Shown: piece after piece, positions 3,742 through 9,593 of the stretch
Numbering within the stretch: position 1 is the first letter of the stretch
Layout: each line of letters opens with the position of its first letter
NCBI GenBank assembly: GCA_017520545.1
Contig: JAFXFM010000003.1
Coordinates: 5,062-69,061, forward strand
Direction of reading: 5' to 3'
Source of the DNA: Alistipes sp.
Lineage (GTDB): Bacteria > Bacteroidota > Bacteroidia > Bacteroidales > Rikenellaceae
Length of the DNA: 64,000 bases
The notes under the pieces: model-generated
Database searches by the model: none
Told to the model about the DNA's origin: nothing
The model's input: only the letters and a program-made list of their open reading frames with translations
Program-made: the position numbers and the translations under genes

Positions 3742-5052
3742 CTACTCGTCCAAGCGAATAATGTTGGCTCCGATAGCATTCAATCGACCCTCGATATCGC
3801 GATATCCGCGATCTATCTGGTCGATATTCTGAATGGTGCTTACGCCATCGGCACTCATAGCCGCAATAAGCAGTGCTACGCCGGCACGAATATCGGGCGA
3901 CGACATCTTTGCCGCACGCAACTGATGCTCGTGATTTTGTCCGATAACAGCTGCACGGTGAGGATCACAGAGAATAATTTGCGCACCCATATCTATCAAC
4001 TTATCGACAAAGAACAGACGGCTCTCGAACATCTTCTGATGAATCAATACCGTACCCTTTGCCTGTGTTGCCACAACGAGAAGCACCGACAAGAGGTCTG
4101 GTGTAAGTCCCGGCCACGGCGCATCGGCAATAGTCATAATTGAGCCGTCGATAAAACTCTCTATGCGGTAGTGGTCCTGTTGTGGAATGTAGAGGTCGTC
4201 GCCTCGACGCTCCATAGCGATACCAAGACGTGCAAATTGCGCCGGAATAATTCCAAGATTCTCGAACGATACACCCTTAATGGTTAGCTCCGAGCGGTTC
4301 ATCGCCGCCATACCGATAAAGCTACCAACCTCAATCATATCGGGTAACATTTTGTGTGTTGTGCCTCCAAGAGACTTTACACCCTCAATTTCGAGGAGAT
4401 TCGAGCCTACGCCCGAAATTTTTGCGCCCATACGATTGAGCATCTTGCACAATTGCTGCAAATATGGCTCACAAGCAGCGTTGTAAATCGTTGTCTTGCC
4501 CTCTGCCAACACTGCTGCCATAACTATATTGGCGGTGCCCGTAACCGAAGCCTCGTCAAGCAACATATAGCAACCCTTCAACTTGTCGGCCTTAACCGAG
4601 AAGAATGCTTCGGCGGCATCGAAATCGAACTCGGCACCGAGCTTCTGGAAGCCGATAAAGTGGGTATCGAGGCGACGGCGTCCGATTTTATCTCCTCCCG
4701 GCTTCGGAATGTATCCCACACCAAAACGAGCCAGAAGCGGTCCTACAATCATCACCGAACCACGCAAACGTGAACAACGATTGCGATAGTCGTCGCTGGT
4801 GAGGTAGTCGAGGTTTATATCTTTCGCGCAGAACGAATAGCACTCCTCCGACAAACGCTCTACCTTAACACCCATAGCCTGCAATAACTCTATGAGGTGA
4901 ATGATGTCGAGAATCTGTGGAATGTTCTCCACGATAACCTTCTCCTCGGTTAAAAGAGTTGCGCAGATAATTTGCAACGCCTCGTTCTTTGCGCCTTGCG
5001 GCTTAATCTCACCCGAGAGGCGACGTCCGCCTTCAACCTTAAAAATTGCCAT
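3742..5052 (-). CDS. murA: UDP-N-acetylglucosamine 1-carboxyvinyltransferase
   Basis: GAKNEAL, RGSVMIVGPLLARFG, PGGDKIGRRRLDTH, SVTGTAN, PWPGLTPD, DIRAG, IDRGY. Confidence 0.97.
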   Translation of the reverse strand: MAIFKVEGGRRLSGEIKPQGAKNEALQIICATLLTEEKVIVENIPQILDIIHLIELLQAMGVKVERLSEECYSFCAKDINLDYLTSDDYRNRCSRLRGSVMIVGPLLARFGVGYIPKPGGDKIGRRRLDTHFIGFQKLGAEFDFDAAEAFFSVKADKLKGCYMLLDEASVTGTANIVMAAVLAEGKTTIYNAACEPYLQQLCKMLNRMGAKISGVGSNLLEIEGVKSLGGTTHKMLPDMIEVGSFIGMAAMNRSELTIKGVSFENLGIIPAQFARLGIAMERRGDDLYIPQQDHYRIESFIDGSIMTIADAPWPGLTPDLLSVLLVVATQAKGTVLIHQKMFESRLFFVDKLIDMGAQIILCDPHRAAVIGQNHEHQLRAAKMSSPDIRAGVALLIAAMSADGVSTIQNIDQIDRGYRDIEGRLNAIGANIIRLDE

Positions 5053-5070
5053 AACTATATTTTTATTTGA

Positions 5071-6375
5071 TTATTTTTTCAAAAATTTCTCACGGAACCA
5101 CACTCGTCGAGCCTCCTCCTGCTCTACATAGAGCCAGTGTCCTATCTCGTTGTAGAGGGCTAACTCCTTCGGTGCAGCAATAACATTGTAAACCGAAAAC
5201 ATAGAGGTCGGACAACAAGTTGTGTCGTTGTAACCGCAAGCCATAACACCCGGAACTTTCACACCACGTGCAAAATTCACAACATCGTAGTATGGTATGG
5301 TCTTCAACGCCTTCGCCTTATCCAAATTCTTATCCATATCGGTACGGAAAAGGTGCGGCCAACCACCACCGCGACCATTGAGATATCCCGTCATATCGGC
5401 AAGTGCAGGATAGTGTGCGTAGTAGTATTTCACTTTTGGATTGAGATAGGTGGTAACGAAAGACAAGGCTCCGCCCTGACTATGACCACATACGCCAATA
5501 CGCTCGCTATCTACGTAGTCGAGCTCCGACAAGAAGTCGATTGCTCGCGCACAGCCGATATAGACACGCTTGTAGTAGTATTGGTCGCGATCCTGAATGT
5601 TGAAGCGGTTATAGTTTGCCAACGCTCCACGCGAAAGGTTGCGGTAAGCCTCCTTCGGAAGATTTACGGGTATGCTGTGAATACCCACCTGCAACACTAC
5701 AAAGTCAGCCAAATCCAACTCCGTCATCGGGGTTAGCGAGCGCACACCCGCACCCGGAACACGCAAAATTGCAGGGTGCTTACCGGGCTTGGTCGGCACT
5801 GTCATCAAACCGTGGAAATAGACCTTCTTCTTGTAGGTCTGATACTGCACGTAGTATGCGGTATAGGTACCCGTACTCAACTCGGGAGCAGGCGTAATTT
5901 TAGGCTCCATCGGAATCTGAGCACTCTCCGCCAAAGCCTTCTGCCAGAAAGCATCAAAGTCGGCAGGATACTCCACCGTAGGCTTAATTTTTTCCACCTC
6001 GAAGCCCGCAGTAGCCAACCCCGTATAGGTAAAGCCGCCGTGCTTAACCGTTACCGCACAGCGCAAAAAGCCTGGGACCTTCATCGTGCCGAGCTTGATA
6101 ACGCCTTCACCCGCCTTCAAAACCATCTTTTCGCTCTTGTGTGCCGGCATATTATCCTCCGATAGCTCGTACTGTACCTCCACATTCTGCATTGGAGAGT
6201 GGTGCTTCAACACCAGCACCTTGAAAACGGGCTTCTCGCCACATTTGTAGTTCCAATCAAGATGGTCGGGCATAACGATAACCTTCACCGAGCGATCTGT
6301 CGGTGTTGCAGCCGAAACGGCAGAAGCGCCAAAGAGTGCAACAAGTGCAACAACAAGAGAGAGAAGTTTTTTCAT
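5071..6375 (-). CDS. Secreted acetylxylan esterase / cephalosporin-C deacetylase-like (CE7-type) alpha/beta hydrolase
   Basis: GHSQGG nucleophile, DTTC and IGHW acid/His candidates; signal peptide from MKKLLSLVV (track start 6399 is 8 codons upstream). Confidence 0.8.
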   Translation of the reverse strand: MKKLLSLVVALVALFGASAVSAATPTDRSVKVIVMPDHLDWNYKCGEKPVFKVLVLKHHSPMQNVEVQYELSEDNMPAHKSEKMVLKAGEGVIKLGTMKVPGFLRCAVTVKHGGFTYTGLATAGFEVEKIKPTVEYPADFDAFWQKALAESAQIPMEPKITPAPELSTGTYTAYYVQYQTYKKKVYFHGLMTVPTKPGKHPAILRVPGAGVRSLTPMTELDLADFVVLQVGIHSIPVNLPKEAYRNLSRGALANYNRFNIQDRDQYYYKRVYIGCARAIDFLSELDYVDSERIGVCGHSQGGALSFVTTYLNPKVKYYYAHYPALADMTGYLNGRGGGWPHLFRTDMDKNLDKAKALKTIPYYDVVNFARGVKVPGVMACGYNDTTCCPTSMFSVYNVIAAPKELALYNEIGHWLYVEQEEARRVWFREKFLKK

Positions 6376-6467
6376 TTTATCTATGGTTTTTGGTTTCATT
6401 TGGTACGAAGATAGTAAAAATTTTCGTAAAAAGCGATGTAGACAACATATAAATTTTCAAAATGTTG

Positions 6468-6475: not shown

Positions 6476-6479
6476 CAAC

Positions 6480-6834
6480 GCAGATTCGGTTCATCGCTGC
6501 CTCGACGAGAGGGGGAGGAAAGTCCGAGCAACACAGAGCACCGTGCAAGTTAACGGCTTGATATTCGAGAGGGTATAGTAGTGTAACAGAAAATAACCGC
6601 CCGGGCAGTAAGCGTCTTTCGGCGCGTCAGGGTAAGGGTGAAAAGGCGGGGTAAGAGCCCACCGCGAGGGCAGCAATGTCGCTCGGTCAGTACGCCTCAC
6701 GGGTTGCAAGGTTATGTATATCGGCAATTAAGGGTTGCTCGCCCGATGCCGAGGGGTAAACCGCTAGAGGTGGCAAGTGATTGTCATCGTAGATAAATGA
6801 TGAACTAAAACAGAACTCGGCTTACGGGGTCTGC
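6480..6834 (+). ncRNA. rnpB: RNase P RNA, bacterial type A
   Basis: GAGGAAAGTCC (6515-6525) and ACAGAACTCGGCTTA (6810-6824) are the universal P4 strands; P1 formed by GCAGATTC / GGGGTCTGC; GGGTAAGGGTGAAAAGGCGGGGTAAGAGCCCACC core. Confidence 0.97.
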
Positions 6835-7325
6835 AAATTTGTCCCTGCACCCTCTTGGTGTGGGGACTCTTTTTGGTTACCTTGAAAGAAATACCACCGT
6901 AAGCCGAATTGTGTGTTACCCACCCCCAAACCCCCTCCTGTGAGGGGGCTTATTACGGGGTCTGCGGTTTTGGGGAAGGCTTTGCGAAATGTGCAAGCCT
7001 TCTTCTTTTTGTAAGGCACTCCCGCCCATAAGCCGAGGAGTGTGTTACCCACTCCCAAACCCCCTCCTGTGAGGGGGCTTACGTTACGGGGTCTGCAAAT
7101 TTGTCCCTGCACCGTCTTGGTGTGGGGACTCTTTTTGGTTACCTTGAAAGAAATACCACCGTAAGCCGAGTTATGTGTTACCTATCCCCCAAACCACCTT
7201 TCTGTAAAGGGGGCTTATTGTTGGGATCTGCGGTTTTGGGGAAGGCTTTGCGAAATGTGCAAGCCTTCTTCTTTTTGTAAGGCACTCCCGCCCATAAGCC
7301 GAGCGTTGTGTTACCCAAACTCCCT
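6822..7325 (+). repeat. Tandem mosaic array of ~131-bp units (A-B-A-B) downstream of rnpB
   Basis: TTACGGGGTCTGC at 6822, 6953, 7084 and degenerate ending at 7231; linker TAAGCCGA..GTGTTACC..CCCAAACC four times; two alternating inner segments, each a hairpin plus T-run. Confidence 0.92.
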
Positions 7326-7418
7326 ATAACCCATAGCGTTCTCTATTGCGCCCGTCATTAAGCAGTCTGCAAGACTGTGCTGTCATTCAATGCCATTCAA
7401 TGCCATCAAATTTGGCGC

Positions 7419-7456
7419 AAAAAGAGCCCGCCTAACGCAATAGTTAGGCGGGCTCT
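7419..7456 (-). terminator. Intrinsic terminator of the 705-aa gene
   Basis: AGAGCCCGCCTAAC / GTTAGGCGGGCTCT 14-bp stem, T-run on the minus strand. Confidence 0.85.
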
Positions 7457-7475: not shown

Positions 7476-9593
7476 CTATTTGCAAACTGAATCCAGAAGC
7501 ATAGTCATCTTAAAGCTGTCCAACCAACCGCCACTGTGAAGGTTGTACCAAGCGTAATAGGCTTGCCAGCCGTTGATCAATACTTCCCAACTTATAAGTT
7601 TGCCAGTACGCTCATCAACTTTGAGTTGAGCAAACTCTACACCATAGTAATAGAGAGATATAGTGCGCACATTGCCTTTTACCGTCTCCATTCTCTTTCC
7701 TTGTTTGCCAGAGAGATTATTGGTTACATCGCGAATAAATCCAATAGGCGTTCCCTTGGCAAAACCATCTTGGCTAACAAACGTATTTATCTCTTGTATG
7801 TAGTCTGGGTATTTTTTGATAAGGTATTCGCAGACAAAAATAGACAAGACTGAACGTACAACACTTTCCATTTGTGATGTTAGGCCCTTTGCATCCAGCA
7901 TCTCCTTTGTCCACTTTTCTCCCTCGCTACTCCACGCTGCAATTAATTCGTTAGAACTATTTAACATATAACCGCCCAAGAAAACCGGATTGGCAAGTTC
8001 CTTTATACCACAAGAAACATTAATGCCCAACGATTTAATGAATGGGTGAGCCTGAACATCGTTGTCTGGGTTCCTTGCATAGCCACGGTCGCCTCCTGCA
8101 CCCCACCATACATTACCATTGTCGTATTTAACGTAGGATATGTCATCGGTCTTCTTTGTTATGCTGATATACTCGTGTTTTCTAAGCGACACACCATCTT
8201 TCATTCGTACATACCATTCATAAGGCTTATACTCTCCATCGTAACGACGGTATTTAATATATTCGCCCTTCTTGTCCTTTGGTGTTGTGAGGTATTTATC
8301 GTACTCATCAAATTTGTAACCGTTAGCGAAGTGGCGGTATTTTGCATCGTGCTTCAAATCGGTGATTGCCGGTGCTGCAAGATCAGTAAGCAACTTCTCA
8401 TACTTCTCCTTTGTGAAGTTTTCGGCGGCACACAAACCCATTTTGTCGCCATTCTTATATACGTACTCGCATTGTTCATTAGCCGCAGAGTAGTGGAATA
8501 CAACGCCATCTCGATAAGTGATAGTACAACTTGTGATTTTACCATTTGCGTCAGCCACAAATGTATCGTTCTTACGCAATGCCTTTTTCTCTGCTTCGAG
8601 AGCCTTCATCTCGGCCTCCGTTATACCACCAATGATATTATCACTCTTGCCATCTGCATATATAAGTTTACCGTTGTCAGCATATTTTTTGAAGTCGGCC
8701 CAAGCCCACGTTAATCCTTTGAACGAATGCAGAGTATTGATATCTTTAACCTTGCAATAGTCGGCCAACTCGCCTTCTACGGCACCGATATACTTGTTGC
8801 CATTCTCGAAGGTGTGGGTAATCTTACCTGCTTCGATTACGCTATTTCCGCCTGTAATTTTGTAGCCCTTAATACCATCGCTCGCAACCGAGACAAAGTC
8901 GCCATTTGGTCGAGTTAGTGTGTAACTACTGTTTTGCAAGTTAATTTTTGCAACAGCACCATTCTTGAAGTTTAAGGTTACTGTTGTTGCATCTTGGAGG
9001 ATTTTGCGTTTTATATTTTTGTTGTCAATACGATATTGTGCCACACCATCAACGTCGGTAATTTTGTAAGACACCTTATCGCCAACAAATTGCTTGATGA
9101 TGCCCATAAACTCACTCGGCAGTTTTGGAGAATAAGCAGACTTGAGCACTATAACATAAGCACCATTTTCGTATTTCATCGTTGCTTCACCAACAATAGG
9201 TCTATTGTTGAATTTACCGTTCTTAATGGTAATTTCGAGGAACTTGTACTTCGAAGCGGCTTTAATCAGTTTTATCAAAGCCAAGTCAGATGATTGGGGC
9301 TGCTCTTTAACCTCTTTGTATATACTCATCGAAAAATCTCCGGTAATGACGCGCTTGTGCTCTTTGAGAATGAGTTTTCCATTGGAAACTTCTAAATTGT
9401 TGAATTCACCCGAGAGTGTTCCGCAAAAGCCCAATGTTAAAGTACCTTTGCCCAGAGGCTTGTTTTTCAGAGTTACACCCTCGAACACTGCATTATCTGC
9501 AATTTTAACGGTCTTTACTTTTGGCTGCGGTGCGGCGAAAGATGAGCCAACACAAACTGCCACCGCCAAAAGCGATAATAATAGTTTTTTCAT
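7476..9593 (-). CDS. Secreted hypothetical protein with degenerate MORN-like beta-hairpin motifs
   Basis: Signal MKKLLLSLLAVAVCVGSSFA; recurring G-x-(L/I)-x-Y-x-(N/D)-G motifs (EATMKYENG, KITHTFENGNKYIG, GKLIYADG, TITYRDG, YVYKNG, VKYDNG). Confidence 0.7.
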   Translation of the reverse strand: MKKLLLSLLAVAVCVGSSFAAPQPKVKTVKIADNAVFEGVTLKNKPLGKGTLTLGFCGTLSGEFNNLEVSNGKLILKEHKRVITGDFSMSIYKEVKEQPQSSDLALIKLIKAASKYKFLEITIKNGKFNNRPIVGEATMKYENGAYVIVLKSAYSPKLPSEFMGIIKQFVGDKVSYKITDVDGVAQYRIDNKNIKRKILQDATTVTLNFKNGAVAKINLQNSSYTLTRPNGDFVSVASDGIKGYKITGGNSVIEAGKITHTFENGNKYIGAVEGELADYCKVKDINTLHSFKGLTWAWADFKKYADNGKLIYADGKSDNIIGGITEAEMKALEAEKKALRKNDTFVADANGKITSCTITYRDGVVFHYSAANEQCEYVYKNGDKMGLCAAENFTKEKYEKLLTDLAAPAITDLKHDAKYRHFANGYKFDEYDKYLTTPKDKKGEYIKYRRYDGEYKPYEWYVRMKDGVSLRKHEYISITKKTDDISYVKYDNGNVWWGAGGDRGYARNPDNDVQAHPFIKSLGINVSCGIKELANPVFLGGYMLNSSNELIAAWSSEGEKWTKEMLDAKGLTSQMESVVRSVLSIFVCEYLIKKYPDYIQEINTFVSQDGFAKGTPIGFIRDVTNNLSGKQGKRMETVKGNVRTISLYYYGVEFAQLKVDERTGKLISWEVLINGWQAYYAWYNLHSGGWLDSFKMTMLLDSVCK

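Follow-up and report, generated by a model that had tools for sequence, protein, structure and literature searches.

A terminator array behind an Alistipes rnpB gene

The window analyzed in this study is a 64,000-nucleotide stretch of an Alistipes MAG (hereafter G000) comprising 1.93 Mb in 24 contigs and estimated to be 92% complete; all the data used here are MAG assemblies. An rnpB gene located in this window is preceded by a divergent acetyl xylan esterase-like gene (5071-6399, minus strand) and by a murA-type EPSP-synthase-fold gene (3742-5052, minus strand). Downstream resides a convergent 705-aa ORF (7476-9593, minus strand) that yields no Pfam match at E <= 1e-5.

Following rnpB are four units of 131-134 nt, arranged in the order A-B-A-B. 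Every unit is composed of the 3'-terminal 13 nt of rnpB, a terminator hairpin particular to its type together with a T-run, an inverted copy of 13-15 nt of the rnpB 3' end (labeled X'), and a linker of ~41 nt that we have named R41. In the gene itself, these final 13 nt (6822-6834) form the 3' strands of P2 and P1. The features of the locus are as follows.

6478-6840, plus strand: rnpB, bacterial class A RNase P RNA (Rfam RF00010, 225.4 bits, full model 1-367)
6822-6952, plus strand: unit 1 (type A), with the 13-mer at 6822-6834, terminator A at 6841-6867, its T-run extending to 6874, and X' at 6894-6908
6911-6952, plus strand: R41 copy a, in unit 1, CCCAC subfamily
6953-7083, plus strand: unit 2 (type B), with the 13-mer at 6953-6965, terminator B at 6975-7002 and its T-run extending to 7010
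7025-7037, plus strand: X' of unit 2, CCCATAAGCCGAG, a copy of T-allele rnpB
7040-7081, plus strand: R41 copy b, in unit 2
7084-7216, plus strand: unit 3 (type A), with the 13-mer at 7084-7096, terminator A at 7103-7129 and X' at 7156-7170
7175-7216, plus strand: R41 copy c, in unit 3, CCTAT subfamily, the most frequent type genome-wide
7217-7324, plus strand: unit 4 (type B), with a degenerate 13-mer at 7218-7231, terminator B at 7241-7268 and X' at 7291-7303; 96% identical to unit 2
7308-7324, plus strand: R41 copy d, in unit 4, degenerate and 3'-truncated
7423-7456, no strand assigned: perfect 14-bp hairpin between the array and the convergent 705-aa ORF

A sequence-only reading of this region had described a tandem recurrence of the rnpB 3' end, with two alternating terminator-like cassettes bracketed by inverted arms, and each of these observations is borne out. 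The 13-mer TTACGGGGTCTGC is found at 6822, 6953 and 7084, and a degenerate fourth copy, TTGTTGGGATCTGC, begins at 7218, giving periods of 131, 131 and 134 nt. The two A units, 1 and 3, are 94% identical (6822-6933 compared to 7084-7195, and as far as the start of R41) and carry R41 copies of different subfamilies; the two B units are 96% identical (6957-7051 compared to 7223-7317). Hairpin A (11-12 pairs followed by TCTTTTT) has a predicted stability of -19.4 kcal/mol (z -6.5), and hairpin B of -18.1 kcal/mol (z -4.1). The inverted arms are longer than originally claimed. In unit 1, CUCGGCUUACGGGG (6817-6830) pairs with X' in the trailer to form an outer stem of 14 bp, and the entire unit folds at -45.7 kcal/mol (z -6.1), a value matched by none of 200 shuffled sequences. 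Only short frames without gene-like support run across the array units. We conclude that the array is real and far beyond chance, and, as described below, that it is not specific to RNase P RNA.

Outside the array, a perfect small tandem repeat (CATTCAATGC, 2.3 copies at 7384-7406) precedes the 14-bp hairpin, which is probably the terminator of the 705-aa ORF and lies outside the repeat.

Could the A-B-A-B duplication be a product of MAG assembly? The source is an assembly of 24 contigs, and several copies of R41 are located at contig ends, indicating that this repeat does disturb assembly. However, the duplicated halves differ at 4-6% of their positions and carry different R41 subfamilies. 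Furthermore, two-unit rnpB arrays are present in independent assemblies from other studies (G001, L094, L140 and L235). We therefore regard a misassembly as very improbable.

The linker is a dispersed, lineage-specific repeat

A search of G000 with the array recovered other copies for the three linker segments only. The linker is therefore repeated elsewhere in this genome, but cassettes A and B have no other copy. With a short-word BLAST search, about 34 copies of R41 are evident in G000, occupying 19 places once arrays are collapsed. Each consists of approximately GTGTGTTACC, a C-rich stretch, a hairpin of 7-8 bp and CTT, for a total of roughly 41-45 nt. The 5' end is fixed, with T at position -1 in 82% of copies and G at -2 in 60%. 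The 3' boundary, by contrast, is ragged, and one third of the copies carry an extension of the form TCGC..GCTC. The hairpin is the only one in the element, 19 nt are unpaired, and the fold is no better than those of shuffled sequences. Two subfamilies exist, and the differences between their hairpins are compensatory.

The distribution of R41 is narrow. An exact pattern matched at least 117 stretches in a collection of 185,579 species genomes, and the matches listed came from Alistipes, Tidjanibacter and unnamed Rikenellaceae MAGs, with one exception from a record labeled only as bacterium. Most R41-bearing MAGs among these listed matches are from ruminant hindgut. (The pattern TAAGCCGA..GTGTTACC was discarded for this purpose because it is too loose and its matches are mostly due to chance.) Within the genus, 18 of the 81 genomes sampled carry R41, and G000 has the highest copy number. 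No copy was found in the viral contigs of the collection. When seven loci bearing R41, including two with a 111-nt long form discussed below, were scanned against Rfam at E-values up to 1, only tRNA, 5S rRNA and chance matches resulted, and literature searches yielded no relevant account of such a repeat in Alistipes or Bacteroidetes, nor of elements that duplicate terminators. The sequence of R41 is nearly invariant across species, which could reflect selection for a function instead of selfish spread.

A common footprint surrounds R41

R41 resides 2-4 nt past a hairpin that follows the end of a gene, be it a gene for a tRNA, 5S rRNA, RNase P RNA or a protein. Stable RNA genes are over-represented upstream: 27 of 151 copies lie behind tRNA genes, and R41 is on the same strand as the tRNA in 26 cases and on the opposite strand in one. 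There is no corresponding bias relative to the replication strand (6 versus 10, judged from local GC skew).

The general layout of these loci is gene end, D, X', R41, D' and flank, where D' is a second, direct copy of the gene end plus terminator located 3' of R41. Two features of this layout were compared with controls. First, the 10-22 nt immediately 5' of R41 are complementary, in reverse orientation, to a segment located across the hairpin and adjoining its left edge, such that X' continues the terminator stem without offset. An inverted arm of this kind ending no more than 10 nt from R41 was found for 80 of 117 copies (68%), compared to 15 of 351 random sites (4%). The source of X' is often the 3' end of a tRNA, 5S rRNA or RNase P RNA. 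Second, direct repeats flank R41 in 51 of 131 copies (39%) but in only three of 131 mismatched-pair controls (2%). These flanking duplicates are about 17-115 nt in length and differ by locus.

Of the 36 tRNA genes in G000, only five are followed by a perfect complement (10 nt or longer) of the gene's own 3' end, and in each of these five cases the complement adjoins R41 or a second repeat, R2 (see below). A clean and particularly clear single event is seen at a tRNA-Ser gene of G000, where the tRNA end is followed by its terminator, an inverted copy of 9-11 nt, R41, and a second copy of the terminator that lacks X'. A similar tRNA-Ser terminator in another genome (G089) is accompanied by neither X' nor R41.

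The rnpB locus of L197 is also among the clearest single events, as are L071 and L103, where a non-hairpin segment has been duplicated and X' extends across the left boundary of the duplicate. Elsewhere, X' is followed at one orthologous gene end by another miniature fold-back, with species-specific loops, that precedes R41. The X' motif before R41 at one gene end is TTAATATAG. In L104 and G060 the distal duplicate already includes part or all of X', indicating that the formation of X' and the insertion of R41 do not always coincide in a single event.

These footprints raise the question of whether R41 moves at all. An alternative is that R41 is a fixed functional site, such as a protein-binding or structure-forming signal behind terminators, and that the inverted copies and duplications are collateral template switches caused by polymerase stalling at this site. 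Its near-invariance across species, the compensatory hairpin changes between its two subfamilies, the constant position of X' against its 5' edge, and the second-order miniature fold-backs are all consistent with such a site, and perfect hairpin arms are known to arise by template switching (PMC8794818). However, the presence or absence of R41 varies at orthologous sites (tRNA-Ser and rnpB), its occurrence in the genus is patchy, and 3'-truncated copies exist. Moreover, stalling explains neither how R41 spread to ~20 unrelated places in G000 and many more in relatives, nor why the distal duplicate is located beyond R41. A fixed site therefore seems to us a rather doubtful explanation.

rnpB loci in relatives and the history of the array

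Arrays or modules follow rnpB in some relatives, but about 19 of the 22 same-genus rnpB loci examined carry a single terminator, no inverted copy and no 3'-end repeats. R41 is found at three of the 22 loci (G000, G001 and G020), and pattern scans added further examples (L044, L062, L090, L094, L140, L197, L235 and L241). In all, arrays or single modules follow rnpB in at least 10 species, and several of these loci, including the independent assemblies cited above, have two units. As with unit 4 of G000, the last R41 is truncated at the array end in G001, G020, L140, L241 and L074.

At every R41-bearing rnpB locus, X' complements the variable 3' end of that genome's own gene (TTATGGAATC, TTACGGGG or TTATAGAATCTGCA), as seen for example in G001, G020, L062, L090, L094, L140, L197 and L235. 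X' ends in GCCGAG except in two copies, which end in GCCGAA (unit 1 of G000) and GCCAAG (the distal unit of L235).

The units of G000 have recognizable relatives. Its A unit is ~95% identical to the lone unit of L197, in which the duplicated A hairpin exhibits one compensatory pair change, and its B unit has a homologue in the distal unit of L235. (A shared CTCTATTGCG flank had seemed to link the last unit of G000 to L235, but in the alignment homology is confined to the B unit and does not extend to the flank.) In its inverted form, the B-unit arm CCCATAAGCCGAG exactly reproduces an rnpB allele with T at the variable position, and this allele is present in the relatives G020 (identical to L032), L235 and L140. 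Because the X' of the B unit copies the T-allele gene and not the sequence that now precedes it, the B unit was presumably made beside such a gene, and the A unit was added later on the gene side. This also accounts for the arms GGCTTAC/GTAAGCC around A and GGCTTAT/ATAAGCC around B, which the sequence-only reading took to covary: the difference is genuine, but it is explained by the origin of the B unit next to a T-allele rnpB and not by compensatory evolution.

The final doubling is more difficult to reconstruct. The two A units and the two B units are 94-96% alike, yet carry different R41 subfamilies, indicating that it was not one clean tandem duplication. No simple sequence of events explains this combination.

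These data bear directly on the hypothesis that the array is a selected, rnpB-specific 3' platform of terminators or processing stems, which would control the 3' end of RNase P RNA or insulate the downstream gene and would have converged with the arrangement in E. coli. Several observations are in its favor. Such units recur behind rnpB in at least 10 species, hairpins A and B are both strong predicted terminators, the pair change in L197 is compensatory, and the E. coli repeats likewise begin in rnpB. On the other hand, the same module follows tRNA, 5S rRNA and protein genes, most rnpB loci of the genus make do with one terminator, and the E. coli units have no inverted copy. Furthermore, the inner X' copies mismatch what now lies upstream of them, as expected for fossils and not for maintained stems. 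An rnpB-specific selected architecture, one of two possibilities offered when the array was first noticed, is thus unlikely.

Companion repeats R70 and R2

Two other small repeats were encountered at these loci. R70 is a module of ~72 nt whose core, CTTCGCACCTCGGCA..TGCAAGCA, follows a variable hairpin that often has TTCG, TACG or TCCG as its cap. Examples are found at L157:300-420 (G000 C9:145.2 kb), at L158:338-450 and at many loci within L312-L421. At least 117 stretches matching R70 are present in Alistipes and Rikenellaceae MAGs, with one in Hoylesella loescheii, and none were found in the viral contigs of the collection. In 20 of 109 copies R70 lies inside the hairpin loop of R41, which creates the 111-nt long form of the latter; the remaining copies reside within short tandem repeats such as GTTTTCC or CTCAATT. 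Variants of R70 are compensatory (GTGC/GCAC versus CTGC/GCAG), a pattern of sequence change that suggests a structured RNA or single-stranded DNA. Copies of R41 and R70 are often within a few hundred bases of contig ends (G000 C3:1618, C8:3975, C24:213 and many other loci), and both repeats probably break short-read MAG assemblies.

The third repeat, R2, consists of TCGGTCAGTnGGTGGCGGTGTGGCA plus about 200 nt and has 11 copies in G000, at places that include C15:158852, C18:3439, C17:130333, C19:34472, C22:47196 and C24:21986. Nearly all of these copies directly follow a tRNA gene, its terminator and a stretch in which the tRNA 3' end is copied in inverted form as far as the T loop; in several, part of the tRNA T arm is repeated in direct orientation at the end. 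At one tRNA-Ser locus (L173, G020 C84:19623-22786) three layers are stacked. Moving outward, the tRNA and its new terminator come first, followed after ~200 nt by a partial tRNA 3' end, a terminator, X' and R41, and then by another terminator, an X' of 19 nt, and R2. This order indicates that successive events push older units away from the gene.

Search for an enzyme and the possible involvement of RNA

None of the enzymes considered, whether transposase, reverse transcriptase or other, could be linked to R41. Neither a Y1 transposase (PF01797) nor an IS110 transposase was found in G000, which, as noted above, is 92% complete. Likewise, no intact reverse transcriptase is encoded in G000, where only a fragment scoring 24-30 bits was seen, and none was detected in the R41 carriers G001 and G020. 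Reverse transcriptase genes are sporadic across the genus and do not follow R41. Six such loci examined in relatives contain neither R41 nor R70, and no Rfam intron model matched R41 or the reverse transcriptase loci examined.

Two loci came to light during these searches. At L428:1106-1207 (G060 C31), an RT-5 RNA motif (84.5 bits) is positioned just upstream of a gene for a 429-aa reverse transcriptase, and the pair, which is not linked to R41, is probably a retron-like defense unit. L434 (G000 C19:56140-59367) is a normal type II CRISPR locus at a contig end, with a Cas9 fragment, Cas1, Cas2, and a 36-nt repeat of 66-nt period. R41 arrays were also considered as CRISPR arrays themselves, but this assignment was rejected because the CRISPR of G000 is on another contig and has an unrelated repeat, and because the would-be spacers of the array are the recurring A and B cassettes.

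The orientation of R41 follows transcription and not the replication strand, and for this reason we have kept an RNA-linked route under consideration. In this scheme, a terminated transcript or an R-loop at the terminator would prime DNA synthesis via the 3' end of the hairpin. Reverse transcriptase or Pol I would then copy the upstream RNA to yield X' before switching to an antisense R41 RNA at its 3' end; fixation of the product in the chromosome would follow. Besides the 26:1 orientation relative to upstream tRNA genes, the over-representation of the most highly transcribed genes (tRNA, 5S rRNA and rnpB) is compatible with this route. The fixed 5' and ragged 3' ends of R41 fit a jump onto a defined template end, and the nested R70, with its UNCG-type loops and compensatory stem changes, resembles a structured RNA. 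However, an intact reverse transcriptase is lacking from G000 and was not detected in G001 or G020. Those checked in relatives are not beside R41, with one of them being the retron-like gene that accompanies the RT-5 RNA. Furthermore, we know of no bacterial route by which an RNA-DNA chimera enters the chromosome. On balance, we give the involvement of RNA only a small chance.

A fold-back model for the array

Taken together, these observations are most consistent with the hypothesis that R41, a small non-coding repeat dispersed in and specific to this lineage, accumulated locally to form the array, being inserted repeatedly by fold-back and template switching before the block was duplicated in place. 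We assign this reading a probability of roughly 0.55. It comes close to the other possibility offered by the sequence-only reading, namely repeated insertion of a mini-element, except that rnpB is not the target. Rather, the element adjoins hairpins behind gene ends in general.

Short-range template switching is known to create perfect stems and hairpin arms (PMC8794818, PMC5453318), and snap-back templated insertions have been documented at repaired breaks (PMC5068794). By a comparable process, a free DNA 3' end at the base of a terminator hairpin would fold back on the hairpin and be extended along its own upstream sequence to generate X', sometimes with a second small fold-back. Synthesis would then carry on along a discrete R41 template from its fixed 5' end. 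The fixed 5' end of R41 behind an ever-different X' suggests that a discrete R41 molecule either serves as the template or is itself joined, and speaks against homology copying of another chromosomal copy. Finally, synthesis would rejoin the chromosome upstream of its point of departure, thereby duplicating the gene end and terminator. Such resumed synthesis or joining upstream, which would yield the distal duplicate, amounts to a pair of staggered breaks, one at each base of the hairpin.

For rnpB, more than one event may have occurred, with the B unit formed beside a T-allele gene and the A unit beside the present C-allele, after which unequal recombination or further insertion might have enlarged the block. 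The gene would stay intact because each event regenerates its 3' end, and the outcome for the cell would be a string of backup terminators.

This model replaces the notion of a conserved RNase P 3' device with the testable idea that stable-RNA terminators are hot spots, at which a small repeat can be added repeatedly to highly expressed stable RNA genes without breaking the gene. The footprints of R41 would constitute a natural record of bacterial fold-back and template-switch DNA synthesis, and may point to a new mobilization mechanism. Annotation and the reading of Term-seq data in gut Bacteroidales are also affected, given that strings of terminators and long stems that include tRNA or RNase P RNA 3' ends are to be expected there.

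Comparison with known systems

Template-switch hairpin arms (PMC8794818, PMC5453318) and snap-back insertions (PMC5068794) share with X' the one-step formation of a perfect inverted copy that extends a stem. Junctions with stutter and filler are also common to these events and to R41 loci. In contrast to the situation with R41, the documented events involve neither a particular dispersed element nor direct duplication of the target.

Among mobile elements, several candidates were rejected. An integrase-borne island at a stable RNA gene is inconsistent with units of 131-134 nt that hold only short frames without gene-like support. A MITE is inconsistent with ends that are not inverted repeats and with flanking duplicates of ~17-115 nt, which are not of fixed length. 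Derivatives of IS200/IS605 elements (PATE) were dismissed given the single hairpin of R41, the long duplications, and the failure to find a Y1_Tnp gene in G000.

Integrases are known to duplicate att sites at the 3' ends of tRNA and tmRNA genes. As with R41, the stable RNA 3' end is regenerated, a partial copy is displaced downstream, and events can stack. R41 differs in that the insert is ~45-110 nt and has no integrase, the duplicate includes the terminator and varies by locus, and an inverted copy is present. R41 resembles class C group II introns only in its terminator-proximal sense site, as these introns also integrate in sense orientation immediately past intrinsic terminator hairpins; at 41-45 nt, R41 has no ribozyme domains and is too short to carry a reverse transcriptase ORF.

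The REP and BIME sequences of enterobacteria and pseudomonads are mobilized by RAYT and are characterized by a GTAG or CGTC head and by inverted pairs. Like R41, they are short extragenic repeats behind genes that form mosaic tandem clusters with alternating linker motifs, in tens to hundreds of copies compared to ~34 for R41 in G000. REPs are structured, imperfect palindromes; as a palindrome R41 is a doubtful match, having a hairpin of 7-8 bp but 19 unpaired nt and a fold no better than those of shuffled sequences. However, R41 has the head GTGTGTTACC in place of GTAG or CGTC, its copies are arranged directly, and a search of G000 for a Y1 transposase gene was negative. Neither target-derived inverted copies nor long target duplications are reported for REPs.

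Tentatively, and with less conviction than for the fold-back origin of the array itself, we propose that R41, R2 and R70 may belong to a hitherto undescribed type of mini-element in bacteria. The 3' hairpins of transcription units would direct the spread of such an element, which would proceed by fold-back priming and template jumping, leaving an inverted copy of the upstream flank and a target duplication of hairpin length. Such a pathway, which is possibly RNA-templated, would be distinct from those of DDE, HUH and serine/tyrosine recombinase enzymes and of group II introns.

The closest parallel at the same gene is in E. coli, as the sequence-only reading had correctly stated. Tandem repeats of 113-nt units at the 3' end of rnpB in this organism were reportedly described by Reed and Altman in 1983, and analogous repeats of 178 nt are associated with tyrT. 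The K-12 genome has ~3.5 direct copies at 113-nt spacing that start inside rnpB. Both systems are built from direct tandem units that begin within the RNA 3' end, each with a terminator hairpin. The E. coli units are near-identical copies of one unit, with no inverted copy and no alternating cassettes, whereas in the Alistipes array two unrelated hairpins alternate and every unit carries an inverted copy and a genome-wide repeat. Even so, the footprints of R41 suggest how the long-known rnpB and tyrT repeats of E. coli could have arisen.
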